A DNA stretch of 64,000 bases from Patescibacteria group bacterium (lineage in GTDB: Bacteria > Patescibacteriota > Minisyncoccia > Phycocordibacterales > PALSA-1337): positions 41 through 64,040 of the forward strand of contig JBBTYL010000003.1 of assembly GCA_038061795.1 (NCBI GenBank), given 5' to 3'. The notes under the pieces are model-generated. The model was not told where the DNA came from. It saw only the letters and a program-made list of their open reading frames with translations, and did not search any database. The position numbers were made by a program, and so were the translations under genes. This document shows, one piece after another, positions 13,560-34,989 of this stretch; the stretch's first letter is position 1; each line of letters starts with the position of its first letter.

Positions 13560-14073
13560 AGAGATGGATATTGTCGTTGTCTTTGAGTGCCCTTCGCGAC
13601 AATTCCTTCGGCAGATATTCAATCCTGATTTTCGTATTTTTCTTGCAATAATCGTGTTCCCATCGTGAGCCGAACGATGATTCCCACCCGTAGATGAAAT
13701 GAACAACCGCTATTCTTCCGGAGGAGAAAAGCGGTTTATAAAAATTCTCAAGGATCGGTATGCAATGAATCTCATTCGGGTTCATTTTCTGCCACATTTG
13801 GCATAGACTATCCATCTTCTTCTGAAATGGAATCTGGCTGAATATGTTGTAGCCTTCATCCTTCGACAGTATCTCGATTATCTTTTCAAAGACATAAAGG
13901 TTACCAGGAACAGTCCCCACTCCGCCAGTCGAAATTGGCCCAGAAACCATGTGGATATCTCCTTCAATTTTTGAAATGACTCTCAGGGCGACTCGCGCAA
14001 GCTCATCAAAAGTCTGAGCTCTTGAGAGGGCTTGTTCGTCTTCGGTCGCCCAATGCAGGTAATGAATGCTCAT
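13552..14073 (-). CDS. Hypothetical protein, possibly nucleoside 2-deoxyribosyltransferase-like (DUF4406-like)
   Basis: 173 aa. VSGPISTGG resembles the (I/V)xGPMxG start of that fold. The assignment is weak. Confidence 0.35.
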   Translation of the reverse strand: MSIHYLHWATEDEQALSRAQTFDELARVALRVISKIEGDIHMVSGPISTGGVGTVPGNLYVFEKIIEILSKDEGYNIFSQIPFQKKMDSLCQMWQKMNPNEIHCIPILENFYKPLFSSGRIAVVHFIYGWESSFGSRWEHDYCKKNTKIRIEYLPKELSRRALKDNDNIHLYD

Positions 14074-14095
14074 AGTGCCTCCATTATAGAATTAT

Positions 14096-14938
14096 CTAGT
14101 TGATTCCGCAAACGCCGCGAATTTCAGAAATCACCTCCTCGCTTTCAGTCGGCTTCATTCCGATTTCCCTAAGAAAATTTGGCTGCTTGTAAATATCGGT
14201 ACATAGTACGACACCTTTCGACAAAAGGGCCTTTTTGTGGGCATTGGACAGCGAAACGAGGCAGGTGAAAGGATGCAGGCGGAGTTCCTCGATGATGTCC
14301 TGCAAATTGCCTTTGTGCGGGTAGTTCCACCCGAGCATTTTGACACCCTGGCACTCGCCGTAACGGATAGCTTGATCAGTGAATTTCGTATTCGTAATGA
14401 GCCAGCCTTCATCGAGCTTGCGGACAACGCCGCCATAATTGAACATGTTGCCGCGCAGATCATCGAAACGGGCTTTTATGTATAGAGCGACCTTGAGATC
14501 AGATTTCATCCCGAGTTCGTTGTGAAATTTCGCTTCAACCATCATTAGCTTGTCCTTGTTCCAAGCGACGACATCCACTTCATGCGCCACGCAGACGCCA
14601 AGCACCGTCTGATCGGTGAGAGTCTCATATCCCCATGCTTGGAATATGCGAGAGATGTATTTTTCAAAGGGAAACCCATCAGGGCCAAGCTCTGAAAGAG
14701 CTCGGCGAAGCGAATACTTGACCGCTATCGGCATGGAGTGCTTGCGGAGAAGCTTGAATGCTCGCGAATATATCTCGCTGGTTGGCATCCCATCGTACAT
14801 TTCCCTGCTGACATGATCAATCACGTCCTCGATGATCTGTTCGCTTCCGCCAGCGTTTTTTAGGGATTCCACGAGCTTGCTTTCCTCGAAAAGCTCTTTT
14901 GAGCCATCTGCCTTGGTGATGGTTATGAGATGATTCAT
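14096..14938 (-). CDS. ATP-cone domain fused to an Mrr-like PD-(D/E)xK restriction-endonuclease domain
   Basis: N-terminal ITITKADGSKELFEESKLVESLKNAG...SEIYSRAF is an ATP-cone. AHEVDVVAW...MVEAKF is a D...ExK nuclease core. Start codon shares an ATGA overlap with the mnmA stop. Confidence 0.7.
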   Translation of the reverse strand: MNHLITITKADGSKELFEESKLVESLKNAGGSEQIIEDVIDHVSREMYDGMPTSEIYSRAFKLLRKHSMPIAVKYSLRRALSELGPDGFPFEKYISRIFQAWGYETLTDQTVLGVCVAHEVDVVAWNKDKLMMVEAKFHNELGMKSDLKVALYIKARFDDLRGNMFNYGGVVRKLDEGWLITNTKFTDQAIRYGECQGVKMLGWNYPHKGNLQDIIEELRLHPFTCLVSLSNAHKKALLSKGVVLCTDIYKQPNFLREIGMKPTESEEVISEIRGVCGIN

Positions 14939-15990
14939 GCAGACAGTATACCACCACCAAGACATGCTTCGCCATCGTATACGACAAGCGATTGCCCCGC
15001 TGAAAGAGTATATTGTGGTTTTACGAATTCAACTGTTTTTTGGTCAGTGAATTTAACTTCCTGAAGTTCCTCTCTGTATCGAGAGCGGGCAAGCAAAATT
15101 TTGTTCAAAGGCACGCTTCCCTGATTCCAATTTATATCTGAAAGCGTGGTTTTTTTGATTCCGTTCGGCAAACTCCCCTCAGTTGTTTTGTTTGCAACAG
15201 TAATTGCGTTTTTTTCAAGATTTTTCGCGATTACATAATACGGTTGATCGTGGGAAGACTTTTTTGTAATCGTAAATCCGTGTCTTTCTCCAATGGTAAA
15301 AAAGAAGGCCCCATCGTGCTCACCTATGACATTCCCATTTTCATCAAGCACATCGCCCCTTTTTGGCTCAATGTAATGAGAAAGAAAATCTTTGATATCA
15401 ATCTTCCCGATGAAGCAAAGCCCTTGACTGTCTTTTTTGTCAGCATTTGGCAATTTAAACTTTTTTGCGTGCTTTCGCACTTCAGGTTTCTCGATGTTTC
15501 CCACGGGAAAAAGCGTCTTCGAGAGCTGGTCCTTGGTAAGTGTCCAGAGAAAGTACGACTGGTCCTTGTTCTTGTCATCTCCAGCTACAAGCTTTCCGGC
15601 CTTGATTTGAGCGTAATGCCCAGTAGCAACAAAATCAGCGCCCTGTTTCATTGCCCAATTGAAAAACCCGCCAAACTTCACGTAACGGTTGCACATCACA
15701 TCGGGATTCGGTGTCCTGCCGGACTTGTATTCTCTGATCATGTAATCTACGACGCCTTCCTTATATTCTTTTTCAAGATCAAGAGTCTCAAAAGGAATCT
15801 CGAGCTTGGCTGCCACGCGCATGGCGTCCAGGCGATCTTCTTTCCATGTGCACGTTATCCAGTCAGGCTGCCAAACCTTGATGAACACTCCCACGACTTC
15901 ATAACCCGCTTTTTTTAGCAACGCAGCAGAAACAGAGCTATCTACTCCGCCAGACATTCCGACATAGACTTTTTTCCTGATTCCCGACAT
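14935..15990 (-). CDS. mnmA: tRNA 2-thiouridine(34) synthase
   Basis: VYVGMSGGVDSSVSAALL PP-loop, SQGLCFIG, 351 aa. Confidence 0.93.
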   Translation of the reverse strand: MSGIRKKVYVGMSGGVDSSVSAALLKKAGYEVVGVFIKVWQPDWITCTWKEDRLDAMRVAAKLEIPFETLDLEKEYKEGVVDYMIREYKSGRTPNPDVMCNRYVKFGGFFNWAMKQGADFVATGHYAQIKAGKLVAGDDKNKDQSYFLWTLTKDQLSKTLFPVGNIEKPEVRKHAKKFKLPNADKKDSQGLCFIGKIDIKDFLSHYIEPKRGDVLDENGNVIGEHDGAFFFTIGERHGFTITKKSSHDQPYYVIAKNLEKNAITVANKTTEGSLPNGIKKTTLSDINWNQGSVPLNKILLARSRYREELQEVKFTDQKTVEFVKPQYTLSAGQSLVVYDGEACLGGGILSA

Positions 15991-16016
15991 GACTCGAGTA
16001 TAGGCTACCAGCGCTT

Positions 16017-16985
16017 TTATTTCAAATACGTGTTCTTGTTTGCAAGATGCCCATCGAACGTCGAGGCATACCGCATAACGCCGTCATTGCCGGTAAGATA
16101 GAACCAGTATGGAGTTTCGATCGGCGTTACGGTATCGAGGATTGTCGCCAAGCTTGGATTAGATATCGGGGCGATAGGCAGGCCCTTATTCGTATACGTA
16201 TTGTAAGGTGAATCGACCCTCAAATCATCAAGCGTAAATCCGCCTGCCTTGCCAGTCGTATAATAGAATGGCGCGTCGACTTGCAGTGCCATGCCCTTCG
16301 CAAGCCTTTTCCAAAGAATTCCGGAGATGATCCTCCTCGATTCATCGGCATATGCCTCCTTTTCGACTAGAGAAGCCATTACGACAATTTCGCCAAGGGG
16401 CCTTTTGAAAGCGATTATCTCTTTTTCAATGGTCGTAACCTTATCGTTGAAATTCTCTCTCATTGTACGGATAATCTCTTCAGGTTTGGCGTTTGCCAAA
16501 AAATAATAGGTGTCTGGGTAAAGATAGCCTTCATAATCATGTGCGAGCGAGACGAAGCGCGGAGCATTGAAATCAGAAAGGCTTCTAAGAAAAATATAAG
16601 CCATATCATACACATTCGTGCCCTCAGGGATGACGATGCGGATCTTCGGCTGTCCTTGATGCCCTTTTGCCATCCTGTAGGCAATCCTGAATAGATTCTG
16701 TTTTTCGGTGAACCTATAATCGCCTGCAAATATTCCGCGATTCTTGGAAAGGATTATTGACAAAGCCTTGAAAAAAAATTTGGACGATATGGCTTGCTCG
16801 CCATAAAGATTATTCGCGACTGATGATATCGTATCGCCCTTCTGAACATGAATATCGAATCTTTGGGTTGGAAAGTTTTTTGGCGGCTGCGAAATGACGA
16901 TAAGCGCTAGAGTACAAAGCGCCAGGATGATGAAGCTGACATTTTTCTTCCAGTGCTTGGAGAATGATTTGTTGAAGTATCGCAT
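16017..16985 (-). CDS. mltG: Endolytic murein transglycosylase MltG (YceG-like)
   Basis: N-terminal TM, EGYLYPDTYYF and SLVEKEA motifs typical of YceG/MltG. Confidence 0.88.
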   Translation of the reverse strand: MRYFNKSFSKHWKKNVSFIILALCTLALIVISQPPKNFPTQRFDIHVQKGDTISSVANNLYGEQAISSKFFFKALSIILSKNRGIFAGDYRFTEKQNLFRIAYRMAKGHQGQPKIRIVIPEGTNVYDMAYIFLRSLSDFNAPRFVSLAHDYEGYLYPDTYYFLANAKPEEIIRTMRENFNDKVTTIEKEIIAFKRPLGEIVVMASLVEKEAYADESRRIISGILWKRLAKGMALQVDAPFYYTTGKAGGFTLDDLRVDSPYNTYTNKGLPIAPISNPSLATILDTVTPIETPYWFYLTGNDGVMRYASTFDGHLANKNTYLK

Positions 16986-16987
16986 GG

Positions 16988-18298
16988 CTAGATCGGAAGG
17001 TTTGATGGTGCCTGGCTTCTCTTGGATGTGATGCGTGGAAGATTCGGCGTCTGTGCGACTTGACCAGGCAAATGATAAATCGTCGCAAGCTCTTCAACGT
17101 TGAGCACTATTGGCTTGCCTATCTCCGGCTTGTAAAAAAACGATCTTCTTTTGAAAGCCTCGAGGCCTTTTCTTTTTTCCCTTCTCTTGCGTATTCCCTT
17201 GAAATCCTGCCAAGGGTAATCAAAGCCGTCAAGCCAGTTGGTTACGCTGAAGCTGTTGAGATGGGGCGAGGCGAAGGCGCGAAGAAGCGAGCGCTGTGCG
17301 GATATGTTGGTTCCATCGAAAAAATCCTTCTTGCCCATATAGATAGATCTCAACCCCACATCGAAAGCGACCTTTGAGATGCTCCTTTCCAAAGCATAGA
17401 TTCTCTCCTGCTGGCCCTTCGTCGGGTTGGGGAACTTGGCCGTTGATGGATCGCTGCCCGGAGGCATCGCTTCTTTTCGAATTTTTTCAATCTCTTTCTT
17501 TGCTTGTTCCTTCCATCGATCATCCTTGCCAAACCATGTTCCTAGCTTCCTTTGTTCCTTCTTATGAGCCTTGATGATGACCTGGAACCAGCACTGTTGG
17601 TTTGCTCCGATCGAGCCCATGAATTCGATGACAGAGTTCAGCGGATCAACCTTGTTTTCTTCATCGACAATTTCTCTTTCTAGACCATAATCGACATACG
17701 TTTTGATTGGATAAGGGTCATGCGTGCCAAGCTCATAGTCAATGACATAAAGATCCATCTCCTTCGGATCGTAATGAACAGATCTCGCATAATCAGGAAT
17801 TTCGTGCATCTCTATGTTCGGATACTGCGCATAAAGAGCGCTCTCAATGAGATTTCTGTATCTCTTCTGGGTGTAAATTATGAATTTCACCTTGCCTTCT
17901 ATGGAAACTATCTCGAATGAAAAATGTGCTCGGAGCTTGCCGTCCCACCAGCGGTCGATGAAGGTGGTTTCTCCTCCCGTCTGGCGAAGCGACATAAAAA
18001 ATGTCTCCATGGCCAAGGGCGATTTCGTTATTTCCTGCGGAAGCCTGATATCAAGCAATATCCACTCAAGCTTATAAATGAAACGAGATCGGACATATAG
18101 AAGCCACGTTCTCCAAAACGTATACATTAGAAAAAGAGGAAACCAGAAAAACGATGAGGCTAGAATGAAGGCAAACACGTCGCCGAACAGCTCTAGGTAC
18201 TCCATGCCAAGCTGTGGAGCAAAAAAGATGACACAAAGGGCTGGAATGATTATGGCGCTAAGCCAGAGCGGCGAATATATTACGACTTTTTCAAACAT
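16988..18298 (-). CDS. Hypothetical polytopic membrane protein with a large soluble C-terminal domain
   Basis: 436-aa ORF with 2-3 N-terminal TM helices. No family recognised. Confidence 0.55.
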   Translation of the reverse strand: MFEKVVIYSPLWLSAIIIPALCVIFFAPQLGMEYLELFGDVFAFILASSFFWFPLFLMYTFWRTWLLYVRSRFIYKLEWILLDIRLPQEITKSPLAMETFFMSLRQTGGETTFIDRWWDGKLRAHFSFEIVSIEGKVKFIIYTQKRYRNLIESALYAQYPNIEMHEIPDYARSVHYDPKEMDLYVIDYELGTHDPYPIKTYVDYGLEREIVDEENKVDPLNSVIEFMGSIGANQQCWFQVIIKAHKKEQRKLGTWFGKDDRWKEQAKKEIEKIRKEAMPPGSDPSTAKFPNPTKGQQERIYALERSISKVAFDVGLRSIYMGKKDFFDGTNISAQRSLLRAFASPHLNSFSVTNWLDGFDYPWQDFKGIRKRREKRKGLEAFKRRSFFYKPEIGKPIVLNVEELATIYHLPGQVAQTPNLPRITSKRSQAPSNLPI

Positions 18299-18327
18299 AT
18301 GCCGCTAATTATAGCATATGAATTCTC

Positions 18328-19374
18328 TTATGCCGCTACATTTGATTCTATGATGTCGTACTTGCCATCCTTTGTCTTCCTGAAATATTTCTGGTTTTGG
18401 AGGTTTACCATGATCGTGTTTTCCTTGACGTATCGTTCCTTGAGAACCTTTTCAATGATATCTTCCTTTGCAAGCGGGCCATTTTTCGCAATTATGCTCT
18501 TGATAACATCCTTCACGACCCCCGACATGTAGCCCCATTCTCTGAGAGCGTAAAGTCCTCGTCCTACAAGTACAAAACGCTTATCCTTGATGAGCTCATT
18601 GTGCGTAGTCGCGACATGGGCTTTCTTTTTGAACACCTGAGTAATCTGTTTCGCGACCTCCTTGAAATGGATTGGCGAACCGTGCTTTCTGATAACAAGG
18701 AATGCGTAATCTCGCATGCCCTTTGTCTTCACATTCGGAGAGTGAGCAACGCCCCATTCGCCGATTGCGTTCTTGCCAAGGGATTTTGAAAGTGAGAGCC
18801 AGCGCTTCATGATTTCCTGATTCTTGTACTTTTCAGAAACAAGCTCAAGGTGGCTTAGGAATTTATTTATGATTTCAGATTCCGGCAAAAGATCGTCATC
18901 AGAAAGGCCATCGTAAAGCTTTCGAAGAGAATCCTCAACCTGCTTCGCAAGCTCCTCATTTACATGCCATCGATGCTTGAATTCATCATCCTCCTTTCGC
19001 TTCTTGAAAATGTCCCCGATAACAAGTATGAAATGGATGTTGTTCTGGAGAGACTTATCCTTAGCTACATGGCCAAGAAAATCGTCTTCTACGACGATGC
19101 CTCCGAGGCTGTGAAGCAAATCTTCAAGCTCGCCGAAAGCTGCCTTCTCAGACTTATAGGCATCAGACTTCCTGATGTTAGCAAGCGCATAATTCTCGAT
19201 TTGGCGGACCCTCTCGCGAGTGATGCCGTACAGCTTTCCGATTGCATCAAGCGTCATTTTTTCAGTATCCTTTCCAAGCCCGTATCTCTTGACTAGCACT
19301 TCGCGAGCACGATCAGGCAGAGCTGAGAGGAGGCGTTTCGTTGTCTGTTTTGGTTTGAATTGCACGGTAGCCAT
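18328..19374 (-). CDS. DNA-binding protein with an N-terminal sigma-70 region-4-like HTH and a C-terminal HARE-HTH-like domain
   Basis: LPDRAREVLVKRYGLGKDTEKMTLDAIGKLYGITRERVRQIENYALANIRK looks like region 4.2. The C-terminus HFKEVAKQI...FVLVGRGLYALREWGY resembles the delta-subunit/HARE-HTH fold. Confidence 0.55.
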   Translation of the reverse strand: MATVQFKPKQTTKRLLSALPDRAREVLVKRYGLGKDTEKMTLDAIGKLYGITRERVRQIENYALANIRKSDAYKSEKAAFGELEDLLHSLGGIVVEDDFLGHVAKDKSLQNNIHFILVIGDIFKKRKEDDEFKHRWHVNEELAKQVEDSLRKLYDGLSDDDLLPESEIINKFLSHLELVSEKYKNQEIMKRWLSLSKSLGKNAIGEWGVAHSPNVKTKGMRDYAFLVIRKHGSPIHFKEVAKQITQVFKKKAHVATTHNELIKDKRFVLVGRGLYALREWGYMSGVVKDVIKSIIAKNGPLAKEDIIEKVLKERYVKENTIMVNLQNQKYFRKTKDGKYDIIESNVAA

Positions 19375-19447: not shown

Positions 19448-22285
19448 CTATTGCACCACGATATTGATGAGCTTATTTTTGACGACAATCACTTTTTTAA
19501 TGACGGCGCCCTTGGTCCATTTCGCTATTTCAGGCTTATCTAAAGCCATTTTTTGGATAGTAGCATCATCAGTATCAGCTGCGCATTCTAGCGTTCCCCT
19601 CATTTTGCCATTCACTTGAATCGTCATCGTCACGGTTGATTCTGTCAGCTTTTTCGGATCAAATGTTGGCCAGACGCTCGCATGCACTGATGCCTTATTT
19701 CCTAGAATTGCCCAAAGCTCCTCGGCAACATGCGGTGCGAATGGGGCCAGAAGCTGAACAAGTATCTCATAGTGAGCTTTTGAAATTCTTTCTTCTTTCT
19801 CAAGATCATTCACTGCGATCATCATCGCGCTGATTGCAGTATTGAATTTCATATCCTCGATATCCGAAGAGACTTTTTTAATGGTTTTGTGGATGATCGT
19901 CTCGATTCTTTCGTTACCACCCTGTCCAACCTTTTCTTGAAGTTTCCATACGCGCTCAATGAACCTTCGTGACCCAGCAATCGTGTTCGTATCCCACGCA
20001 ATAGCCTGATCGAAAGGGCCCATGAACATCTCGTGGATGCGGAGAGCATCCGCCCCGATAGTCTTTATGATGTTGTCTGGATTGATGACATTGCCTTTCG
20101 ATTTTGACATCTTCTCTCCGCCTTCGGCAAGTATGAGGCCGTGCGAGGTGCGCTTCTTGTATGGCTCGCTTGTCGGAACAAGTCCAAGGTCAAAAAGAAA
20201 TTTGTGCCAAAAGCGAGAATAAAGGAGGTGGAGGGTCGTGTGCTCCATTCCCCCGTTATACCAATCGACAGGAGTCCAGTATTTGAGATTTTTAGGGTCG
20301 GCAAAGGCCTTCCTGTTCTTCGGATCAGCGTAACGGAGATAATACCAGCTTGAACCAGCCCAGTTCGGCATGGTATCGGTCTCCCTCTTTGCGGGACTCT
20401 TGCAGGCTGGACATTTCGTATTGACCCATTTTTCAATCGAGGCGAGCGGACTTTCTCCTGTCTCTGTAGGCGCATAATTCTTCACTTTTGGAAGCTCGAC
20501 TGGCAATTGCTCCTCTGGCACGGGAACTATTCCGCACTTTGCACAATGAACTACTGGTATCGGTTCTCCCCAGTATCTTTGACGGGAGAATATCCAGTCG
20601 CGGAGCTTGAATTTGGTGACCCATTGTCCGCCTGCGAATGCAGTGATTTCTTTTTTAGCTGATTCAGAGTCCTTGCCGTTGAATTGGGCGGAGTTAATCA
20701 TGAGTCCTGGCTCGACTGAAGCCCAGTTATCATTCATCAATCTATGCATCCAAATATCAAGCTCACCACATTGCATGGTATCCTTCCGAATATCCTTTTG
20801 ATCAAGCCACACGAGTTCATGAATTTCATTCTCTTCGGCTGAAATTTCATTGCGTTCTTCGTTTTCCAATTCAAAATACGCAACATTAAAATACGCAATT
20901 CTGTTTACATCCTTGTGGGCAGCGAAAAATTCACTCCTGACTTTTCCGCCGAGCACCTTTATAAATTTAAGATTCTTATAGCCTGTCTCTTCAAGCGCTT
21001 CTCTTTTTGCGGCCTCTACAACATCTTCATTGCCCTCTACTCCACCAACAATAAATGTGGTCCATGGCTGCTTCTTCCACTTCAAACAAAGTATTTTCTG
21101 ATTTTTTGGGTCTCGAATAATTACTTGGACCGCATTCCTTTCTATTACCTCCTTTCCAGGCCTGTGCGGATTCGTCTTATCAGTTCTCAATGGCATCACG
21201 ACATCCTTTACTCCCAACCCGTATTTCTTCGCAAAGTCCCAATCCCTTTCATCATGCGCAGGCACCGCCATCACCGCTCCAGTTCCATAATCGGCAAGCA
21301 CGTAGTCTGCAATCCAAATCGGAACCTCCTCGTTGTTTACAGGATTGATTGCCTTGATGCCTTTGAGTTCGACCCCGGTTTTAGCAGCTTTTGCATTTGT
21401 TCTCTCTTCCTCGTCCTTTTCTCTGACAGCCTTTATGTATTGTGCAACCTCGATCGTATTGTCAGCATGGCTGATGAATTCATCGACAAAGGCATGTTCA
21501 GGGGCGAGAACCACATAAGTGACGCCGAAAAGAGTATCCGGCCGCGTCGTAAACACTTTTATTTTCTTATCGCTGCCCTTGATCGGAAATTCTATTTCCG
21601 CTCCTTCGCTTTTTCCAATCCAATTCCTCTGCTGAATCTTTATCTTTTCAAGGAAATCAGTCTCGTCCAGATCCTTATCGAGCCTGTCTGCATATTTCGT
21701 GATGGCAAGCATCCACTGCTCTTTCTCTTTTTGCTCAACTTTCGTCCCACAACGCTCGCAGCAGCCATCTACGACCTCTTCGTTGGCGAGGCCGATCATG
21801 TCCTTCGGACACCAGTTTATCGTAAGCTTTTTTTTGTATGCCAGGCCTTTTTTCAAGAACTGCAAAAAGATCCACTGCGTCCATCTGTAGTATTTCGGAT
21901 CAGTCGTATTTATTTCCCTGGACCAATCGAAAGAAAATCCGAGGGCCTTGAGCTGGCGTCGGAACGTATCAGTATTGTTCTTTGTCACGATTGAAGGCTG
22001 AATGCCGGTCTTGATAGCATAATTCTCTGTAGGAAGCCCGAAAGCATCCCAGCCGATCGGATAGAGAACGTTATAGCCTTCTCTGCGTCGCTTGCGGGAA
22101 ATGATGTCCATAGCAGTATTGCTGCGGATATGTCCGACATGTAGACCGTCACCGGATGGGTATGGAAATTCGATGAGAGTGAAGAACTTCTTTTTCTTAG
22201 GATCTTCCTTGACTTTGTTCGGCTTCTTGGACTCCCAAGCCTTCTGCCATTTTTTCTCGATCCTGTCGTGGTCGTACGGGTTCAT
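19448..22285 (-). CDS. leuS: Leucine--tRNA ligase with a Nudix domain inserted in the CP1 editing domain
   Basis: HVGH and KMSKS class I motifs. CP1 motifs TTRPDTLFG and GTGAVMAVPAHDERDWDFAKKYGL. A perfect Nudix box GGVEGNEDVVEAAKREALEETGY at residues 414-436. Confidence 0.95.
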   Translation of the reverse strand: MNPYDHDRIEKKWQKAWESKKPNKVKEDPKKKKFFTLIEFPYPSGDGLHVGHIRSNTAMDIISRKRRREGYNVLYPIGWDAFGLPTENYAIKTGIQPSIVTKNNTDTFRRQLKALGFSFDWSREINTTDPKYYRWTQWIFLQFLKKGLAYKKKLTINWCPKDMIGLANEEVVDGCCERCGTKVEQKEKEQWMLAITKYADRLDKDLDETDFLEKIKIQQRNWIGKSEGAEIEFPIKGSDKKIKVFTTRPDTLFGVTYVVLAPEHAFVDEFISHADNTIEVAQYIKAVREKDEEERTNAKAAKTGVELKGIKAINPVNNEEVPIWIADYVLADYGTGAVMAVPAHDERDWDFAKKYGLGVKDVVMPLRTDKTNPHRPGKEVIERNAVQVIIRDPKNQKILCLKWKKQPWTTFIVGGVEGNEDVVEAAKREALEETGYKNLKFIKVLGGKVRSEFFAAHKDVNRIAYFNVAYFELENEERNEISAEENEIHELVWLDQKDIRKDTMQCGELDIWMHRLMNDNWASVEPGLMINSAQFNGKDSESAKKEITAFAGGQWVTKFKLRDWIFSRQRYWGEPIPVVHCAKCGIVPVPEEQLPVELPKVKNYAPTETGESPLASIEKWVNTKCPACKSPAKRETDTMPNWAGSSWYYLRYADPKNRKAFADPKNLKYWTPVDWYNGGMEHTTLHLLYSRFWHKFLFDLGLVPTSEPYKKRTSHGLILAEGGEKMSKSKGNVINPDNIIKTIGADALRIHEMFMGPFDQAIAWDTNTIAGSRRFIERVWKLQEKVGQGGNERIETIIHKTIKKVSSDIEDMKFNTAISAMMIAVNDLEKEERISKAHYEILVQLLAPFAPHVAEELWAILGNKASVHASVWPTFDPKKLTESTVTMTIQVNGKMRGTLECAADTDDATIQKMALDKPEIAKWTKGAVIKKVIVVKNKLINIVVQ

Positions 22286-22304
22286 AAGTAGTGAGTATCA
22301 TATA

Positions 22305-22335
22305 ACAAAAAACCCGCCTCGTGAAGACAGCGGGT
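22305..22335 (-). terminator. Rho-independent terminator between small ORF 22355..22549 and leuS
   Basis: Minus strand ACCCGC-N12-GCGGGU hairpin followed by UUUUUUG. Confidence 0.55.
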
Positions 22336-22857: not shown

Positions 22858-23955
22858 TTAGATCTTAAACTCCATAACATCACCGTCCTTCACGATATAC
22901 TCCTTCCCTTCCGTCCTTAGAAGTCCCTTTTCTCGCGCAGCTCCAAATGATCCTGCCTCAATCAATTTATCCCATTCGATAACTTCGGCTCGAATGAATT
23001 TTTCTTCAAAATCTCCATGAATGGCTGTTCCTGCCTTCGGTGCCGTCCAGCCCCGTCCAATAGTCCATGCTCGAGTTTCCTTTTCGCCGGTTGTGAAGTA
23101 AGTAATCAAATTCAAAAGCTCATAGCCCTTTTTAATAAGGTTATCGATGCCGTCATCTTTTGCCCCGAGACCCTCTCGCAACTCTTTTTTATCTTTATCA
23201 TCGATGTCCTTGAGCTCGTGCTCGATACCAGCATCGACAATCACCCATTTCGCCCTGTTTTCATTGAAAAAATTAATAAGTGCCCTGTAGCGGTCGTCAT
23301 TCATCTCATCAAGATTCTTTCCTCCAGCTTTTTTGTTCAGGATATACATGAAGGGTTTTGATGTAAGCAGGTGCAAAGATTTCAAGAAAGGGGCCTCGAA
23401 TTCATCTGGAATAACAGTAGACGCAAGCTTGCCTGCATCGAGAGTAACTTTGATTTTTTCGACAAGGCCATTTTCTATTATTGCTTCTTTTTTACCAGCT
23501 TTAACTTCCTTGTTGAGATTTGCGAAGCGCTTCGTAACTGTCTGGAGATCTGCAAGTATGAGCTCAAGGTTAATAACCTCAATGTCCTTAAGTGGATTTA
23601 TCTTTCCATCAACATGAATGATATTGTCGTCCTCGAAGATTCGTACGACTTCAGCAATTGCATCTGTCTCGCGGATATTGGTAAGGAATTGGTTTCCAAG
23701 ACCTTCCCCATCAGATGCTCCTTTCACAAGTCCTGCGATATCGACGAATTCTACGACTGCTGGGACAGTCTTCTGCGTCTTCGAAAAGTCAGCAAGCTTG
23801 TGGAGACGCTCATCAGGAACGGCCACAACGCCGACCGAAGGATCTATAGTAGCGAATGGATAGTTGGCTACAAGAACGCTTTTTTTAGTAAGAGCGTTAA
23901 ATAGGGTGGACTTGCCGACATTCGGTAGACCCACGATTCCGATGGATAATGACAT
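22858..23955 (-). CDS. ychF: Redox-regulated ribosome-binding ATPase YchF
   Basis: IGIVGLPNVGKSTLFNALT P-loop and a C-terminal TGS-like end (EGKEYIVKDGDVMEFKI). 365 aa. Confidence 0.94.
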   Translation of the reverse strand: MSLSIGIVGLPNVGKSTLFNALTKKSVLVANYPFATIDPSVGVVAVPDERLHKLADFSKTQKTVPAVVEFVDIAGLVKGASDGEGLGNQFLTNIRETDAIAEVVRIFEDDNIIHVDGKINPLKDIEVINLELILADLQTVTKRFANLNKEVKAGKKEAIIENGLVEKIKVTLDAGKLASTVIPDEFEAPFLKSLHLLTSKPFMYILNKKAGGKNLDEMNDDRYRALINFFNENRAKWVIVDAGIEHELKDIDDKDKKELREGLGAKDDGIDNLIKKGYELLNLITYFTTGEKETRAWTIGRGWTAPKAGTAIHGDFEEKFIRAEVIEWDKLIEAGSFGAAREKGLLRTEGKEYIVKDGDVMEFKI

Positions 23956-23962
23956 AGGGATG

Positions 23963-23991
23963 ATTCTATGCTAATCTGTGCAGGAAATCAA
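23963..23991 (-). promoter_or_regulatory. ychF promoter TTGATT-N17-TAGAAT, with the ATG 7 nt after the -10 (leaderless geometry)
   Basis: -35 at 23986..23991, -10 at 23963..23968, ATG at 23955. All read directly. Confidence 0.6.
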
Positions 23992-24695: not shown

Positions 24696-24992
24696 TCAAA
24701 TATTTTGGGTGGGATCCAACCAGTCGTAAGGAACGCCGAGGTGCCTCCAACGGGAGGGGACGATCAGTAGGGGTGTCTCGACTAATCCATCAGTGTAAAA
24801 GCTGAGAAACTCGCAATCACGCTGCGGAATAATCATGAGCTGCCCTGAATCCGAAATGCGGTCAGGAAATTGGCTGGCGATCATTGCATCTTTCACCGGG
24901 CACCAATCGTACTCATTTTTTGCGAATCGTTTGATTGAAATCGCTAAATAGAGTCCTGCGCAAAGCAATAAAGCAAAGAACATGGTTATCAT
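24696..24992 (-). CDS. Hypothetical membrane-anchored protein (98 aa)
   Basis: N-terminal TM MITMFFALLLCAGLYLAISI. -10-like TAGAGT (25000..25005) exactly 7 nt upstream of the ATG. Confidence 0.5.
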   Translation of the reverse strand: MITMFFALLLCAGLYLAISIKRFAKNEYDWCPVKDAMIASQFPDRISDSGQLMIIPQRDCEFLSFYTDGLVETPLLIVPSRWRHLGVPYDWLDPTQNI

Positions 24993-25036
24993 AAGCTGTA
25001 CTCTATGCTACACCTCTTTATTTTATGAGTAAAGTC

Positions 25037-25274: not shown

Positions 25275-26666
25275 TTATAGCACATCCTGTGCGCCATTTC
25301 TGTAGATGGTGAGCGGCACGACATTCCATGAAGAAAGGACTGAAGTGACATACTTCCAAGCGCTTGTAACTTCCTCAGTGCTCGTAAAAAGCGTCTGGTC
25401 TCCGATTATTGCGTCATAAAGCACTCTTTCATAGGCATCTGGCAGGATAGCAAGCGAAGCAGAATCGCTGTACCTGAACTTGAGAAGCTTCGATTCAACA
25501 TCCATTGTGAATCCAGGAGTCTTAACCCAGAAACGGACTTTTATGCCCTCGTCGGGCTGAATCCTGAATGTTAAGATATTCTGTCTTTCCTCATCTTTCT
25601 CGTTTTTAAAATAGATATCGATTTCTGTTTTTGTTTCAGCGAGCGACTTTCCGCTTTCGAGATAGAAAGGAACGTTTTTCCAGCGGGCGCTGTTGATATA
25701 TGACTCTATCCTGAAATAGGTTTCGGTTTGAGTATATTCCTTTACCCCTCCTTCAAACTTATAGCCCTCGTATTGCCCTCGCACCACTCGAGAAGCAATA
25801 TTTTTTGCTGTCATGGGCTGCATACGGTTGAGTACTTTTGCGCGTTCGCTGCGGATGGTGGCAGCGTCGGTCGATGCTGGAGGCTCCATTGCAATCAGCG
25901 CAAGCATTTGAAGCATATGATTCTGTCCGACATCCTTGAGAGCTCCTATGCCGTCGTAAAAAACGCCGCGGCCTTCCATTCCGATCTTCTCAAGCAGTTT
26001 AATATGGACCTTGTCTACATATTTTCGATTCCAGAGCGGTTCAAAAAGAGAGTTTGAGAATCGAAAAGCAAGGATATTCTGCAAAGCTTCTTTTGCAAGG
26101 TAATGATCGATTCGAAAAACTTGATTCTCATCGAAAAGCTCTCCAAGCTTCTTGTCGAGCTTCTTTGCCATCTCGCTGTCATTTCCAAACGGCTTTTCAA
26201 CGAGAATTCGCGTCCATCCCTCATCTCCACCGCAAGGAATAGTCAGTCCGGAGTTTGAAAGATGCTGGAAAATTGATTCGTAAAGAGATGGCGGGATAGA
26301 GAGGTGGAACAATTTGTTCGAGCATTGGTGGAAGGTGTCATCGATGTTCTTCAGTCTTTGCGCAAGCTGCGCATATGAGGAAGATGCATCGAAATTGCCC
26401 TGCTCATAATACATATGATCAATGAAGTGCTTCACCTCCTCTTCCTGATACTGGCCGGGCTTGATATTCATGTTCTCACGCACGTAAACTCGGAAATCCT
26501 CGCGGGTGAATGGCTTTCGGGAAAAACCTACGATCGCAAACTTACTCGGAAGCTGTTTTTTAACATACAGATTCAACAAAGCAGGAAGGAGCTTCCTTCC
26601 TGCTAAGTCTCCGGTAATGCCGAAGATAATGAATATTGTTGGTGTGGCTGTAGTTACTCCGTTCAT
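25275..26666 (-). CDS. zwf: Glucose-6-phosphate 1-dehydrogenase
   Basis: IFGITGDLAGRKLLPALLNLY NADP-binding motif and the RIDHYLAKE active-site motif. Confidence 0.92.
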   Translation of the reverse strand: MNGVTTATPTIFIIFGITGDLAGRKLLPALLNLYVKKQLPSKFAIVGFSRKPFTREDFRVYVRENMNIKPGQYQEEEVKHFIDHMYYEQGNFDASSSYAQLAQRLKNIDDTFHQCSNKLFHLSIPPSLYESIFQHLSNSGLTIPCGGDEGWTRILVEKPFGNDSEMAKKLDKKLGELFDENQVFRIDHYLAKEALQNILAFRFSNSLFEPLWNRKYVDKVHIKLLEKIGMEGRGVFYDGIGALKDVGQNHMLQMLALIAMEPPASTDAATIRSERAKVLNRMQPMTAKNIASRVVRGQYEGYKFEGGVKEYTQTETYFRIESYINSARWKNVPFYLESGKSLAETKTEIDIYFKNEKDEERQNILTFRIQPDEGIKVRFWVKTPGFTMDVESKLLKFRYSDSASLAILPDAYERVLYDAIIGDQTLFTSTEEVTSAWKYVTSVLSSWNVVPLTIYRNGAQDVL

Positions 26667-26691
26667 GAGTACCTATGATACCACAATTGGT

Positions 26692-30900: not shown

Positions 30901-31467
30901 TTAGTATTTTCGTATCACGCCTTTGACCACTGCTGCAATTCTCATGTCGTTTTCAGGATAAATTGGTCCGTATTTCTTGTTTGCAGGTTGCAAATAGAAA
31001 GTGTTCCCTTTTTTCTTAAAATACTTCATTGTCCATCCTCCATCAACTTCAGCAATGACAATATCATTCTCTTTTGGATCATCAGTTCGCTCGGCTATAA
31101 CTAGATCTCCTTCATTTATTCCAGCCTCGATCATTGAATCCCCTTTTACTTTCAAAAGAAAAGATGCTGGCCTGTTTTTAATCAAATAGTTATCGAGATT
31201 GAGCGTATCGAGAGCCTCCTCTTCTGCAACAGTCGGGATGCCGGCTTCGACAAGTCCCAAAAGCTTAACTTCCTGAAAAAGATTCTTCGGGGTAAGCCTT
31301 CCTGATTCATCTTTATCGACAAAGCCAGCATCAATGAGCTTATTGATGACCTTGTAGACTGCATTCTTGGACTTGAAACCGAGAAGCTTCATGATTTCCG
31401 CGTATGTCGGCATCCTCTTCTGCCGTTCATAAAATGCAAATATTTTGTTCTTGTAGGTTTCTATCAT
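30901..31467 (-). CDS. lexA: LexA repressor (S24 peptidase)
   Basis: Winged-HTH N-terminus (PTYAEIMKLLGFKSKNAVYKVINKLIDAGFV) and the S24 domain VKGDSMIEAGINEGDLVI...MKYFKK. Confidence 0.9.
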   Translation of the reverse strand: MIETYKNKIFAFYERQKRMPTYAEIMKLLGFKSKNAVYKVINKLIDAGFVDKDESGRLTPKNLFQEVKLLGLVEAGIPTVAEEEALDTLNLDNYLIKNRPASFLLKVKGDSMIEAGINEGDLVIAERTDDPKENDIVIAEVDGGWTMKYFKKKGNTFYLQPANKKYGPIYPENDMRIAAVVKGVIRKY

Positions 31468-31476
31468 TATTGAGTA

Positions 31477-31686
31477 TTATAATACGAAGCTCGCAAGAAC
31501 GTGAGACATCCTTCTGAGCACGCTTGTTCGTGGCCGGCAGTTCGTTATGTAAAACTGCGACGCAAGAAACTTATGCCTTCGCGCTTCAGCCTTGTACGGA
31601 AGGCCCTTTATGATCTTGAGATCAATGACTTCATTCAGCTTCTTGATTTCCTTCCTAATGGTGATTTTTTGAAAAAATGTGCTCAT
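31477..31686 (-). CDS. Hypothetical 69-aa basic protein, first gene of the lexA operon
   Basis: ORF ends 10 nt before lexA and lies directly downstream of the LexA-box promoter. Confidence 0.45.
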   Translation of the reverse strand: MSTFFQKITIRKEIKKLNEVIDLKIIKGLPYKAEARRHKFLASQFYITNCRPRTSVLRRMSHVLASFVL

Positions 31687-32619: not shown

Positions 32620-33291
32620 TTATTTCGAGAAAAGCGTCTTTTCAGGCGGCTTAATGAACTTCCTCATTTCAACATCAGAGAAAACTCTTTGAACGTCAGT
32701 CTTATTGAACATCATCATGAGTGGCTTCGTTGATTTTTCTGGGTTGCTGGCATCGGGAATAGAGAACCCTATATATTCAACCTTCTTTTTCATTCTATTT
32801 CTAACCCAATCTATCGCTGGCACGAGATCGGAGTCAGAGCTGACAACAATGGCAGTGTCATATTTATTATCAAAAGCTCCTACCAATAAATCTGTTGCGA
32901 TTTTTACATCTATACCCTTTTCTCTCATTCTTTCGGTATGTATCTTTTCTATGCCTATTTTCTTGAGCTTTTTATACTCAAGAACACGATTATCGACAAC
33001 CAGTTCCTCAATTCTCGTTCTTAACTTGCTTGTCTTTATATCCCAGCCACACTTTTTAAGAATGGTAAAAAGCTTCGTCTGTTTCGACATCAGTTCTTTG
33101 CTAAGCAGATCACCTTCTTTCTCGCGAATGGTGCCTTTATAAAACCTTTTTGAATTTTCACTGGCAGTACGACCATCAATAAGAAGACTAGCAAAAGCCT
33201 CAAAATCAAAATCATTCTCTTTGATGCCAAGCTTCTTTACCACCAAGTGATAAAAATTGCCACCATCTATGTATACAGTAATCCTTTCCAT
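32620..33291 (-). CDS. NYN-domain (LabA/DUF88-like) putative ribonuclease
   Basis: ITVYIDGGNFYH ... DTAIVVSSDSDLVPAIDWV are NYN/LabA motifs. Start set at MERITVY; the ORF track extends to 33327. Confidence 0.85.
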   Translation of the reverse strand: MERITVYIDGGNFYHLVVKKLGIKENDFDFEAFASLLIDGRTASENSKRFYKGTIREKEGDLLSKELMSKQTKLFTILKKCGWDIKTSKLRTRIEELVVDNRVLEYKKLKKIGIEKIHTERMREKGIDVKIATDLLVGAFDNKYDTAIVVSSDSDLVPAIDWVRNRMKKKVEYIGFSIPDASNPEKSTKPLMMMFNKTDVQRVFSDVEMRKFIKPPEKTLFSK

Positions 33292-33307
33292 GGTTTCCAT
33301 TATAACC

Positions 33308-33346
33308 CCAAAAAGAAACCCGCACACTCTTTGCAGAGGCGCGGGT
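33308..33346 (-). terminator. GNRA-capped hairpin plus U-tract between promoter 33360..33388 and the NYN gene (terminator or attenuator)
   Basis: Minus strand ACCCGCGCCUCU-GCAA-AGAGUGUGCGGGU (12 bp, one bulge) followed by UUCUUUUUGG. Confidence 0.55.
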
Positions 33347-33707: not shown

Positions 33708-34656
33708 GCTGGACGATATGATCAAGAAAATGCTCAAGCGAAGCGCCGACTGAGTGAAGCGCCTTTGGAATAAGAGACTCTTCAGTGAGTCCTGGCAGCG
33801 TATTAGTCTCGAGGATAAAGATGCCTCGCTTCGGATGGATCATGAAATCGGAGCGCGAATAGTGGCGGAGTCCGAGAGCCTGATGTGCCTGCTTTGCCAT
33901 CTGCTCCAATTCCCTCTTTTGAGTCTCTGTAAAATTACCAGGAACAATCTCATCCGACAATCCGCCATACTTCGCTTCAAAGTCAAAAAACCTGTCTCCA
34001 TGAGGACGTATTTCAATCGGCGGTAAAGCATAGAGATCATGGTCACGATAACCATCGACAACTCCGACAGTTGCCTCAATCCCATCAATAAATTCTTCGA
34101 TCAAAACGGAGTTGCTGTGTTCGAAAGCTTGCCTAATTGCTTCTTCCAATTCAGGAAAGCCCCTTACTATCTTCACCCCGACCGATGATCCGCTTGAAGT
34201 CGGCTTCACAATGACCGGCAAAGGAAATTTTTGAAACGCCTTATGAGCTTCGACGCTGATGTTCTGAAGAGATTCAAGCAGCAATGACTGCGGAGTTTTC
34301 ATGTTCTCCTTTTTGTAGACATTCTTTGAAAGCTGCTTGTTCATTCCGATAGCTGAAGCAAAAGAACCTGAGCCAGTAAAGGGAATCCCGTGTGTCTCAA
34401 GCGTATGCTGAACCTTCCCATCCTCGCCGTAGTGGCCGTGGAGCGCATTGAAAATAACATCAAAATGATTGAGTGCGACATGGGGCTTTATAGGAAGGCC
34501 GTGCATATGCCAAACGCCTTTCTTGTCTATAAGGATATCCCTCACGCTATATTTATCTGTGGGGAGATGATTCAAAACCGTTGCGCCAGTTTTCAGCGAA
34601 ACTTCATACTCGTTGCTTGGTCCTCCCCGAAGGACCCCGACGCGGGTTTTGTGCAT
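33688..34656 (-). CDS. ddl: D-alanine--D-alanine ligase
   Basis: VGVLRGGPSNEYEVSLKTG start and ATP-grasp motifs. Start set at MHKTRVG (ATG at 34656), 7 nt after TATAAT 34664..34669. The ORF-track N-terminal extension to 34878 runs through a terminator. Confidence 0.9.
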   Translation of the reverse strand: MHKTRVGVLRGGPSNEYEVSLKTGATVLNHLPTDKYSVRDILIDKKGVWHMHGLPIKPHVALNHFDVIFNALHGHYGEDGKVQHTLETHGIPFTGSGSFASAIGMNKQLSKNVYKKENMKTPQSLLLESLQNISVEAHKAFQKFPLPVIVKPTSSGSSVGVKIVRGFPELEEAIRQAFEHSNSVLIEEFIDGIEATVGVVDGYRDHDLYALPPIEIRPHGDRFFDFEAKYGGLSDEIVPGNFTETQKRELEQMAKQAHQALGLRHYSRSDFMIHPKRGIFILETNTLPGLTEESLIPKALHSVGASLEHFLDHIVQLAINKK

Positions 34657-34674
34657 ATGAATCATTATACTATG

Positions 34675-34795
34675 GAAAAAATAAACGTGCCGACAAGGTT
34701 TCCCCTGCCGGCACGAATTCACATGCTCCGAGTAAAAGCTCTCGGAGCGACTTTGAACCACTGGGTAAACAAAGAACGATTTCACGTGTGGGCTA
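34675..34795 (-). ncRNA. Candidate small RNA 2 (about 120 nt), delimited by a promoter and a terminator
   Basis: Downstream of promoter 34802..34829. Internal hairpin CUCCGAG-N8-CUCGGAG. Ends in the 12-bp GAAA-capped hairpin 34687..34714 plus GUUUAUUUUUU. No ORF. Confidence 0.4.
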
Positions 34796-34960: not shown

Positions 34961-34989
34961 ATTATACCACCTTTTCAACTACTTTGCAA
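34961..34989 (-). promoter_or_regulatory. Near-consensus promoter TTGCAA-N17-TATAAT overlapping the uvrC stop
   Basis: -35 at 34984..34989 and -10 at 34961..34966. The transcript start is not an AUG. Confidence 0.6.

Follow-up and report, generated by a model that had tools for sequence, protein, structure and literature searches.

How does a bacterium locate its start codons when almost none of its genes is preceded by a Shine-Dalgarno (SD) motif? The question is raised by ychF, where a promoter-like element ends 7 nt before the ATG. The gene lies in a window (the whole stretch of DNA analysed, 64,000 nucleotides) from an ultra-small Parcubacteria/Paceibacteria-type CPR bacterium of Hainich groundwater. 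An earlier note had quoted eight arrangements of a -10 box, 6-8 nt and an ATG, and had read them as leaderless mRNAs; all eight are present on the minus strand, each at its claimed position. With a -10 box close to the ATG and almost no SD, many mRNAs probably begin at the start codon. On the combined evidence, we consider it quite likely that sigma-70-type promoters, most of them with an extended -10, abut ATGs without an SD and give rise to leaderless or near-leaderless mRNAs at about one-third of the genes.

Promoters next to start codons in the window

The arrangements are listed below (N7, for example, is a spacer of 7 nt); the first eight are those of the earlier note, and the last is a counter-example.

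23953..23991 (-): ychF promoter and start, TTGATT(23991..23986)-N17-TAGAAT(23968..23963)-N7-ATG(23955)
36200..36238 (-): uvrC, TTGAAC-N17-TACACT-N7-ATG(36202)
34654..34715 (-): ddl, hairpin (34715..34686) and T-run, TATAAT(34669..34664)-N7-ATG(34656)
33289..33337 (-): NYN-domain gene, hairpin and T-run (33337..33309), TATAAT(33304..33299)-N7-ATG(33291)
24990..25005 (-): 98-aa membrane ORF (24696..24992), TAGAGT-N7-ATG(24992); identical pipeline start
26664..26683 (-): zwf, TGgTATCAT-N8-ATG(26666); TIGR00871 position 2 at residue 9
22283..22330 (-): leuS, hairpin (22330..22314) and T-run, TATGAT (N11) overlapping GATACT (N8), ATG(22285)
48944..48961 (-): gap, TGaTATAAT-N6-ATG(48946); TIGR01534 position 1 at residue 5
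15988..16025 (-): mnmA, TTGAAA-N17-TATACT-N6-ATG(15990); PF03054 position 1 at residue 6
14936..14953 (-): ATP-cone/Mrr gene, TGgTATACT-N6-ATG(14938)
47875..47912 (-): Fic gene, TTGGAA-N17-TGgTATAAT-N6-ATG(47877)
40214..40231 (-): response regulator, TGcTACAAT-N6-ATG(40216)
44115..44151 (-): XRE-type HTH gene (antitoxin-like), TTGCTT-N16-TGtTATCAT-N6-ATG(44117)
44459..44476 (-): Gp49/HigB-like gene, TGcTAGAGT-N6-ATG(44461)
31465..31481 (-): LexA-like S24 peptidase, TATAAT-N8-ATG(31467)
61772..61786 (-): 177-aa ORF, TATAAT-N6-ATG(61774)
58634..58673 (-): 176-aa ORF, TTGCGG-N17-TATAAT-N8-ATG(58636)
43532..43547 (-): transketolase C-terminal subunit, TATGCT-N7-ATG(43534)
44868..44884 (-): 100-aa ORF, TATAAT-N8-ATG(44870); the pipeline instead calls TTG 44846
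59485..59501 (-): 140-aa ORF, TAAAGT-N8-ATG(59487)
8605..8623 (-): alaS, TGcTAAACT-N7-ATG(8607); alternative TATAAT at N17
6771..6791 (-): 372-aa ORF, TGaTATAAT-N9-ATG(6773); predicted leader 0-3 nt
18296..18316 (-): DUF8128 gene, TGcTATAAT-N9-ATG(18298)
43796..43813 (-): 86-aa ORF, TATAAT-N9-ATG(43798)
50018..50035 (+): ECF sigma factor, TATAAT-N9-ATG(50033)
14071..14088 (-): 173-aa ORF, TATAAT-N9-ATG(14073); GGAGG within the spacer
4243..4295 (-): infA (counter-example), TTGACT-N18-TAGTAT, 20 nt to ATG(4245)

Family-profile alignments (NCBIfam, Pfam) back the start codons assigned to ychF, ddl, uvrC, gap, zwf, leuS and mnmA, which appear sound; for ychF, TIGR00092 positions 1-365 match residues 1-364. 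In the window, ddl, uvrC, the NYN gene and infA have naive ORFs that cross their own promoters, as the earlier note had argued for the first three, and both the profiles and the source pipeline's calls confirm the shorter starts of uvrC and ddl. The long ORF of uvrC opens with a TTG at 36238 that is itself the -35 box; the UvrC profile begins at its residue 22 (profile position 7), and in the pipeline's call the protein starts at 36202 and has 407 aa. In the long ORF of ddl, the Ddl profiles start at residues 75-79; ATG 34656 is both residue 75 and the pipeline start. For the NYN gene, PF01936 position 1 falls at long-ORF residue 15, and 33291 is the pipeline start; both are compatible with the shorter start. 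The pipeline itself appears to mis-start uvrB and pyrD.

The reading of leuS needs one revision. GATACT-N8-ATG(22285) exists, but it lacks the conserved first T, and the choice of this hexamer is doubtful since TATGAT at N11 scores higher. Thus, leuS may have a leader of 4-5 nt; its predicted leader is at most ~20 nt and probably 0-5 nt. The promoter of the ATP-cone/Mrr gene lies within the 3' end of mnmA, and its ATG overlaps the mnmA stop (ATGA). The box of the ECF sigma factor is part of a palindrome, GTATTATAATAC, shared with the divergent pyrD. The predicted leader of infA is ~13 nt and carries no SD; from their promoter positions, infA and uvrA are predicted to be leadered.

A Logan unitig with the lexA-like gene (L099, ERR3858137), which starts 1 nt before the ATG, was considered as a transcript end and rejected, as it looks like a DNA assembly break. 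Sibling contigs of that run series start 74 or 252 nt upstream with a common 3' break point, and the contigs from Logan and ENA in which these genes occur look like DNA assemblies.

Spacing, enrichment and conservation

The comparison of -10-to-start distances with shuffles, proposed genome-wide in the earlier note, was run on the window. With curated starts, a -10 PWM score >=4 occurs at N6-8 in 21 of 63 genes, compared with 3.7 when the 60 nt upstream are dinucleotide-shuffled 2000 times (p<=5e-4); 3-nt bins past N18 contain 0-6 genes each. Under the source pipeline's gene calls, a good -10 lies at N6-8 in 20 of 69 genes and at N5-9 in 27 of 69, and a TANNNT peak at N6-9 persists with naive starts (the first ATG of the longest ORF). 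The hexamer precedes 23 of 68 start ATGs at N6-9 (34%) versus 10 of 322 internal in-frame ATGs (3%; Fisher p=3e-12). ATG is the start codon in 67 of the 69 pipeline calls and opens all 29 candidate leaderless genes. A generic two-hexamer promoter scan of four segments gave 37 vs 34.8, 49 vs 31.9, 27 vs 22.6 and 11 vs 15.3 expected, clearly above shuffles in one segment only; it does not discriminate here because the -35 boxes are weak.

Enrichment of TAnnnT near starts, on which the leaderless reading depends, was found in related loci as well. Conservation was assessed in two sets of related CPR loci, together ~1,560 genes. The geometry is present at 215 of 702 start ATGs in the first set (31%, vs 4.3% of internal ATGs; p 3e-83) and at 294 of 862 in the second (34% vs 4.5%; p 4e-114). 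Among ychF orthologues, 29 of 45 from CPR have TANNNT at N6-9 versus 0 of 15 from Firmicutes, and among those of gap 55 of 73 do, 31 of them exactly at N6. Orthologues at 55-92% protein identity retain position and spacing though the flanking sequence diverges, which argues for selection. Loci whose G+C reaches 0.64 still show the signal, whereas in Firmicutes loci of lower G+C (0.39) the motif is depleted, not enriched.

The spacing also bears on where transcription would begin. RNA polymerase initiates ~7 nt past the -10 box, favouring a purine after a pyrimidine. The largest and sharpest peak in both pooled sets is at N6 (85 and 134 genes, over a background of ~19-23 per position), a spacing that puts +1 at the A of the start codon, and 79-83% of the starts with the geometry have a pyrimidine at -1, which would be the preferred context for initiating transcription on that A. 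Hexamers resembling a -10 are also in excess at N9-N17, so that the spacing extends to N9 with a shoulder to ~N17. Part of the set would thus carry short leaders, falling outside the strictly leaderless class; some mRNAs probably have leaders of 2-10 nt.

This shoulder suggests an alternative in which the promoters are real, but most mRNAs carry ultrashort leaders of 3-15 nt, with SD-independent initiation on unstructured A/U-rich leaders and a leaderless minority. Several window genes fit such a description, namely infA, uvrA (TATAGT N15), uvrB (TGgTATATT N12), rpiB (N14) and tktN (N11), as do about one-quarter of the gap orthologues, which have a TATAAT 27-35 nt upstream. However, N6 is the top peak in the pooled sets, and the ~80% pyrimidine at -1 fits initiation on A. 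We therefore regard predominantly ultrashort leaders as unlikely.

Promoter features and the Shine-Dalgarno signal

Alignment on the -10 box gives a consensus of TRTGn, TAtAaT and a TTG 23-21 nt upstream, which corresponds to a 17-nt spacer. The frequencies of T and G at -3/-2 of the hexamer are 0.53 and 0.51, with T at -5, and A reaches 0.62 at hexamer position 4. TGn accompanies 32-48% of the start-adjacent hexamers versus 7% of background, and the upstream TTG 16-30% versus 6%, although the -35 elements are weak overall. The extended -10 and TTG features and the A at hexamer position 4 are all missing from 6,195 coding-region TANNNT hexamers. A terminator-like hairpin with its T-run directly precedes the -10 box of ddl, of leuS and of the NYN gene, leaving just ~13-20 nt in which the transcript could start.

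Many of the boxes sit, as judged from the sequence signal, within the 3' end of the preceding gene. Genes with a same-strand gap of <=25 nt have the motif in 29% of cases and other classes in 29-48%, and the short-gap hexamers still carry TGn (38% vs 7% background). With promoters embedded in the 3' ends of upstream genes, the genome appears to be split into many short leaderless units, and most of its transcription units probably give leaderless or near-leaderless mRNAs.

The claim that these starts have no purine-rich SD was essentially right. When scored as GGAG, GAGG or AGGA 4-12 nt upstream of the start, SD 4-mers precede 5 of 68 window genes, which is about background, compared with 53-66% in Firmicutes loci by the same script. 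They remain at background in related CPR loci (5-12% of every gene class), and no G-rich upstream peak was found in any CPR gene class, including genes without a -10 box; the Firmicutes loci, as a positive control, show an SD peak of 20% per position. One Doudnabacteria locus (L071) looks SD-rich, with 7 of 18 genes. A search for conserved 16S motifs in the window, its 10-kb extensions and 170 related loci found none. Loss of the anti-SD in this organism is suggested by the mRNA side together with the literature: only 48% of the 16S genes of Parcubacteria were found to carry the anti-SD motif (CCTCCT), and bS21 is frequently missing from the group (PMC9297842). The missing SD signal and the start-adjacent promoters fit this published anti-SD loss in many Parcubacteria.

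In the GeneMarkS-2 survey, a motif equally common before operon-internal genes was an argument for a translation signal and not a promoter (PMC6028130). By that logic, TAnnnT could be a non-SD translation-initiation signal in leadered or polycistronic mRNA, as in 'group B' of GeneMarkS-2; the equal motif frequency at same-strand gaps of <=25 nt and the absence of SD motifs everywhere are in keeping with this. However, TGn and a TTG at a 17-nt spacer are DNA-level sigma-70 features, present even in the short-gap class, and at ddl, leuS and the NYN gene the boxes come straight after terminators. A related idea, that the 'TA' of the hexamer is the upstream stop codon at tight spacing, was rejected, as it holds for only 8 of 55 short-gap matches. 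A translation signal is thus an improbable explanation of the motif.

Slightly less probable still is that, in this compact and A+T-rich genome, the boxes serve as secondary or cryptic promoters, with protein made mostly from longer polycistronic transcripts and leaderless mRNAs playing a minor part. The location of many boxes inside upstream coding sequence and the weak -35 elements would suit such a situation, but the conserved position and spacing in diverged orthologues, the persistence of the signal at high G+C and the internal ATGs without signal speak against it. An artefact of base composition or of wrong start codons, for which A+T-rich upstream regions and the alternative starts available in several long ORFs might be invoked, is scarcely credible and was rejected on the shuffles, the same peak under naive start rules, the starts fixed by profile alignments and the depletion in Firmicutes.

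The leaderless interpretation of the geometry is, by contrast with these alternatives, well supported computationally: position relative to the start, promoter features, the base at -1, terminators, start assignments and conservation all point to it.

Known systems and a proposed route to the start codon

The accepted genomic mark of leaderless transcription in bacteria is a Pribnow box lying 6-8 nt from the start of the gene (PMC6028130). It defines 'group C' of GeneMarkS-2, found in Actinobacteria such as Mycobacterium tuberculosis and in Deinococcus-Thermus, where the box precedes the first genes of operons and 25-50% of transcripts are predicted to be leaderless (PMC6028130). The CPR loci match group C, in which the AUG is at the 5' end, in spacing peak and in share of genes, and the survey defining that group makes no mention of CPR (PMC6028130). 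However, group C keeps an SD on leadered and operon-internal genes, whereas no class of CPR genes has an SD peak. Additionally, and unlike group C, the CPR promoters are mainly of the extended -10 type and occur equally often in intergenic DNA and within the ends of preceding genes. The Bacteroidetes-type group B resembles the CPR loci in the lack of SD, and may also share with them an upstream motif equally common before operon-internal genes. Its motif is a presumed ribosome-binding signal on leadered mRNA, whereas the CPR motif carries TGn and a -35 element at a 17-nt spacer and follows terminators.

Archaeal leadered mRNAs often lack an SD as well. In haloarchaea and other archaea (group D), leaderless mRNAs are the majority; several species have >60% leaderless transcripts, and for many archaea the figure is 60-80% of operons (PMC6028130). 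The archaeal promoter box lies ~26 nt upstream and serves another transcription machinery, whereas the CPR element is a bacterial sigma-70 -10 box at N6-9.

In the CPR sequences, sigma-70-type promoters (mostly TRTGnTAtAaT, with a weak TTG at -35) have the last base of the -10 box 6-9 nt ahead of the A that opens the start codon. Given the ~7-nt offset and the preference for a purine after a pyrimidine, we propose that transcription would start at this A or 1-3 nt upstream. In other bacteria and in archaea, the 5'-terminal AUG of leaderless mRNAs is bound with initiator tRNA and IF2, without SD pairing. By analogy, the ribosome may recognise the 5'-terminal AUG with initiator tRNA and IF2 and no SD/anti-SD pairing. 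Some of the remaining genes would have very short, A/U-rich leaders without an SD, and others, which abut or overlap the upstream stop, may be translated by re-initiation after termination; the commonest intergenic gaps (1, -4 and 3 nt) suit the latter.

The closest published work concerns the same broad lineage and concluded that SD helices do not form (Tsurumaki et al. 2022, RNA 28:1041; PMC9297842). The missing mRNA-side SD in the CPR loci is the expected counterpart of the anti-SD loss reported there. That study treats the ribosome; the word 'leaderless' is absent from it, and start-codon finding is not explained. The promoter-adjacent ATG is a candidate answer to how Parcubacteria lacking an anti-SD find their starts. 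Leaderless transcription is a known mechanism elsewhere, and what appears to be new here is the lineage. Our literature search, with subscription journals outside its coverage, found no paper describing leaderless transcription in CPR, so that an earlier report is possible, and no account of how CPR locate start codons.

A large part of bacterial diversity belongs to the CPR, whose members are almost all uncultured and have reduced ribosomes, and for them a promoter-adjacent ATG is a concrete, testable answer to the problem of start-codon recognition. A start model aware of leaderless genes would improve CPR proteomes, and the many short transcription units predicted here matter for operon and regulon inference in CPR genomes. 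Paceibacteria/Parcubacteria, a large CPR clade, might even have abandoned SD-guided initiation altogether, with short leaderless mRNAs as the default, made from extended -10 promoters that crowd the start codons and may even lie in the gene before, and termination-reinitiation for the rest; we put this forward tentatively, as a serious possibility that we rate somewhat below even odds. If true, the leaderless default would be the mRNA-side counterpart of the reported loss of the anti-SD tail and bS21 in this clade, which would then be a bacterial analogue of initiation as it occurs in haloarchaea or mitochondria.

Spacing of -10 boxes and start codons in the window

A recurrent spacing of 6–8 nt between a -10 box and ATG had been taken in the earlier note to imply leaderless mRNAs, on the basis of eight genes (ychF, uvrC, ddl, the NYN gene, ORF 24696..24992, zwf, leuS and gap). 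On re-reading the sequence, the coordinates quoted for ychF are exact, as are those of the seven further examples. The ychF ORF opens with MSLSIGIVGLPNVGKST and is preceded by the following elements.

Promoter and start of ychF
23991..23986, minus strand: TTGATT, followed by 17 nt
23968..23963, minus strand: TAGAAT, followed by catccct
23955, minus strand: ATG

In leuS, GATACT is present where quoted but is weak as a -10 box, lacking the first conserved T; the overlapping TATGAT at N11 (N being the number of nucleotides between the last base of the hexamer and the ATG) is the higher-scoring hexamer. A NUDIX hydrolase domain (PF00293, E=9.5e-15) is inserted at residues 383–501 of the encoded LeuRS (19448..22285, minus strand; 945 aa), between a truncated CP1 editing domain (residues 220–370, profile positions 1–147 of 185) and the catalytic domain's second half. 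We know of no other NUDIX insertion in LeuRS.

When curated starts are used, a -10 score of at least 4 bits occurs at N6–8 in 21 of 63 genes, compared to 3.7 in dinucleotide shuffles (p<=5e-4), and each 3-nt bin past N18 holds 0–6 genes. Because some curated starts were picked after the promoters had been seen, the count was redone by two other start rules. Taking each longest ORF from its first ATG gives a peak at N6–9, and the gene calls that accompany the source assemblies (pipeline starts) place 20 of 69 genes at N6–8 and 27 of 69 at N5–9. The -10-like hexamer TANNNT lies at N6–9 before 23 of 68 start ATGs, versus 10 of 322 internal in-frame ATGs (p=3e-12). The geometry is real, is far past chance and extends well beyond the eight quoted genes. 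The 29 candidate promoter-adjacent starts with coordinates include housekeeping genes (ychF, gap, zwf, ddl, mnmA, uvrC, alaS and transketolase), regulators (LexA-like, response regulator, ECF sigma and XRE), a toxin-antitoxin-like pair, a Fic gene and hypothetical genes. The transketolase (42536..45734, minus strand) is split into an N-terminal gene (44880..45734) and a C-terminal gene (42536..43534); a Gp49/HigB-like gene (44144..44461), an XRE-type HTH gene (43836..44117) and two small ORFs lie between the halves, each of the four with its own -10 box at N6–9.

The hexamers have the character of promoters. When 240 upstream regions from the window and its relatives were aligned on the hexamer, its positions 3–5 favored T (0.44), A (0.62) and A (0.47), giving TAtAaT. 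It is preceded by an extended -10 (TGn; T 0.53 and G 0.51 at positions -3 and -2), by the first T of TRTG at -5 (0.55) and by a -35 TTG at -23 to -21 (0.47, 0.44 and 0.37), with a 17-nt spacer. None of these features is found in 6,195 control TANNNT hexamers within coding regions. Immediately ahead of the ATG stands a pyrimidine in about 80% of cases and G in only 5%. Initiation on a purine is favored when a pyrimidine precedes it. A -10 box at N6 would put the usual +1 on the A of the ATG, and N7–9 would give leaders of 1–3 nt, or the same A via flexible start selection.

Conservation among relatives

Proteins identical to those of the window (G+C 0.44, nearly all genes on the minus strand) occur in the ENA contigs Hain_H41_* (Hainich groundwater) and in NCBI assembly GCA_964357215.1. 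Judged by YchF, the nearest genomes are MAGs of uncultured Patescibacteria: a group labeled 'Ca. Saccharibacteria' (83–92% identity), H41-bin002_1 (85%) and Ca. Taylorbacteria (76%), followed by Paceibacterota, Parcubacteria, Kaiserbacteria and Nomurabacteria MAGs. These matches assign the window to a Parcubacteria/Paceibacteria-type bacterium of the Candidate Phyla Radiation (CPR). For related loci, genes were called crudely (longest ORFs of at least 80 aa, first ATG), which blurs a peak but does not create one.

In 50 CPR loci around ychF (744 genes), TANNNT reaches 11–12% at N6 and 5–7% at N7–9, over a background of 2–3% per position. The Shine-Dalgarno (SD) 4-mers GGAG, GAGG and AGGA never exceed 3% per position there, versus a peak of about 20% in 23 Firmicutes loci (G+C 0.39), where TANNNT is depleted near starts. 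In the window, the absence of SD sites described in the earlier note essentially holds. With the window left out, the ychF loci have the geometry at 215 of 702 start ATGs versus 143 of 3352 internal ATGs (p=3e-83). For 79 metagenome loci found via GAPDH, the values are 294 of 862 (34%) versus 4.5% (p=4e-114), with a peak of 134 at N6 and a flat SD signal.

Orthologues agree. Among ychF genes, whose start was fixed by the conserved N-terminus, TANNNT lies at N6–9 in 29 of 45 from CPR (TGn in 15, SD-like sites in 2) and in 0 of 15 from Firmicutes (SD-like sites in 11); for gap it is 55 of 73, 31 of these at N6, with one SD-like site. The orthologue hexamers vary (TAGAAT, TATTCT, TAATCT, TAAGCT, TAGACT and others) and their position is kept, a sign that the geometry is under selection. 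The signal is still present in loci up to G+C 0.64, and a large CPR clade has conserved the geometry. One Ca. Doudnabacteria locus (JACRDK010000022.1) has an SD 4-mer before 7 of 18 genes and the -10 geometry before 2 of 18, a contrast that suggests that the geometry is specific to certain CPR clades.

Gene spacing, terminators and start codons

Same-strand neighbors are tightly packed, with gaps of 1, -4 and 3 nt the commonest, and such short gaps would suit termination-reinitiation. Genes without the box show no G-rich upstream peak; A is mildly enriched at -8 to -5, and here too a pyrimidine is found at -1. The box precedes 29% of genes lying at most 25 nt behind a same-strand neighbor and is equally frequent before other genes. 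Two readings offer themselves: promoters may routinely lie within upstream genes, or the element may also act at the mRNA level. The partner elements that accompany short-gap boxes (TGn, 38% vs 7%; TTG, 16% vs 6%) lead us to favor the former, tentatively. An example is the ATP-cone/Mrr gene, with TGgTATACT-N6-ATG within the last mnmA codons and its ATG overlapping the mnmA stop codon. The upstream stop codon accounts for only 8 of 55 short-gap boxes.

Upstream of ddl stands a 13-bp hairpin (34715..34686) with a T-run, and 6 nt further on comes TATAAT, ahead of the ATG; a hairpin and T-run end 18 nt ahead of the leuS ATG and 4 nt ahead of the NYN TATAAT. Unless there is read-through, these three transcripts therefore start within about 13–20 nt of the ATG. 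Counter-examples to the short spacing are infA (TTGACT-N18-TAGTAT, then 20 nt to ATG), uvrA (TATAGT at N15) and uvrB (TGgTATATT at N12 ahead of ATG 42262), none of which has an SD site. Near the starts of the window a perfect GGAGG was seen once, 4 nt ahead of the ATG of a 173-aa ORF (14071..14088, minus strand), in the N9 spacer after TATAAT; it would be mostly or wholly absent from the mRNA if transcription starts ~7 nt past TATAAT. Divergent pyrD (GTG 50002, minus) and ECF sigma factor (ATG 50033, plus) starts, 30 nt apart, share the palindrome GTATTATAATAC, a -10 box read both ways. A 348-aa protein (18328..19374, minus strand) combines an N-terminal sigma-70 region 4 (residues 15–69) with HARE-HTH (220–280) and lacks sigma-70 region 2.

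As had been proposed, in uvrC, ddl and the NYN gene the long ORF extends across the gene's own promoter, since independent pipeline calls give starts at 36202, 34656 and 33291; the uvrC -35 box is the TTG opening its long ORF. Profile alignments place the starts as follows.

Profile onset relative to start codons
YchF: TIGR00092 positions 1–365 aligned with residues 1–364
Ddl: onset at residues 75–79 of the 396-aa long ORF; residue 75 is ATG 34656
UvrC: long-ORF residue 22 is profile position 7; residue 13 is ATG 36202
GAPDH, Zwf, LeuS: onset within the first 4–9 residues
MnmA: onset within the first 6 residues
NYN gene: onset at long-ORF residue 15, compatible with ATG 33291 and also with ATG 33300, which falls within TATAAT

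UvrC (34979..36202, minus strand) has merely 407 aa, with GIY-YIG (15–90), UVR (210–238) and RNase H-like endonuclease (263–384) domains and the C-terminal helix-hairpin-helix region finds no match; against TIGR00194 the protein reaches 258.9 bits, under the cut-off of 285.45. The source-assembly starts of three minus-strand genes are probably wrong. For infA (4009..4295), the ORF called from GTG 4281 (90 aa) passes through the gene's own TTGACT-N18-TAGTAT promoter, and ATG 4245 gives 78 aa. For uvrB (42235..42262; source start 42235), ATG 42262 opens with MPTFNLSQTMTPAGDQP, which we take, from E. coli and B. subtilis, to be the UvrB N-terminus. For pyrD (49939..50002; source start 49939), the form opening at GTG 50002 is covered by NCBIfam profiles from residue 1 onward. 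Across the whole window, pipeline start codons are ATG in 67 of 69 genes, with one GTG and one TTG; this share looks unusually high to us and fits initiation relying on the start codon itself.

Probable leaderless transcription in CPR

Leaderless transcription is the best explanation of the geometry and is quite probable; the proposal is refined here to a predicted continuum from truly leaderless mRNAs (N6–8) to leaders of a few nt, apparently with no SD use anywhere. GeneMarkS-2 defines a bacterial 'group C' with a Pribnow box 6–8 nt from gene starts and SD sites on other genes, in Actinobacteria and Deinococcus-Thermus, with CPR unmentioned (PMC6028130). The anti-SD motif was detected in only 48% of Parcubacteria 16S genes and bS21 is frequently absent, from which it was inferred that SD helices do not form, leaderless mRNAs not being discussed (Tsurumaki et al. 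2022, PMC9297842). Neither the window nor its 10-kb extensions nor 170 related loci yielded a 16S gene. YchF is reported, in work cited in PMC12641178, to regulate leaderless mRNA translation; that it is also the best example of the earlier note is treated as coincidence. No description of leaderless transcription in CPR turned up in full-text searches of non-subscription journals.

Logan/ENA contig ends were considered as transcript ends and not accepted as such. A Logan unitig (ERR3858137_773893, positions 1–568) starts exactly 1 nt before the lexA-like ATG (window 31467), and its siblings from the same run series start 74 or 252 nt upstream; its start is most likely an assembly break.

The leaderless mechanism is of a known kind; its probable dominance in Parcubacteria-type CPR, together with remaining genes that lack SD sites, appears undescribed.
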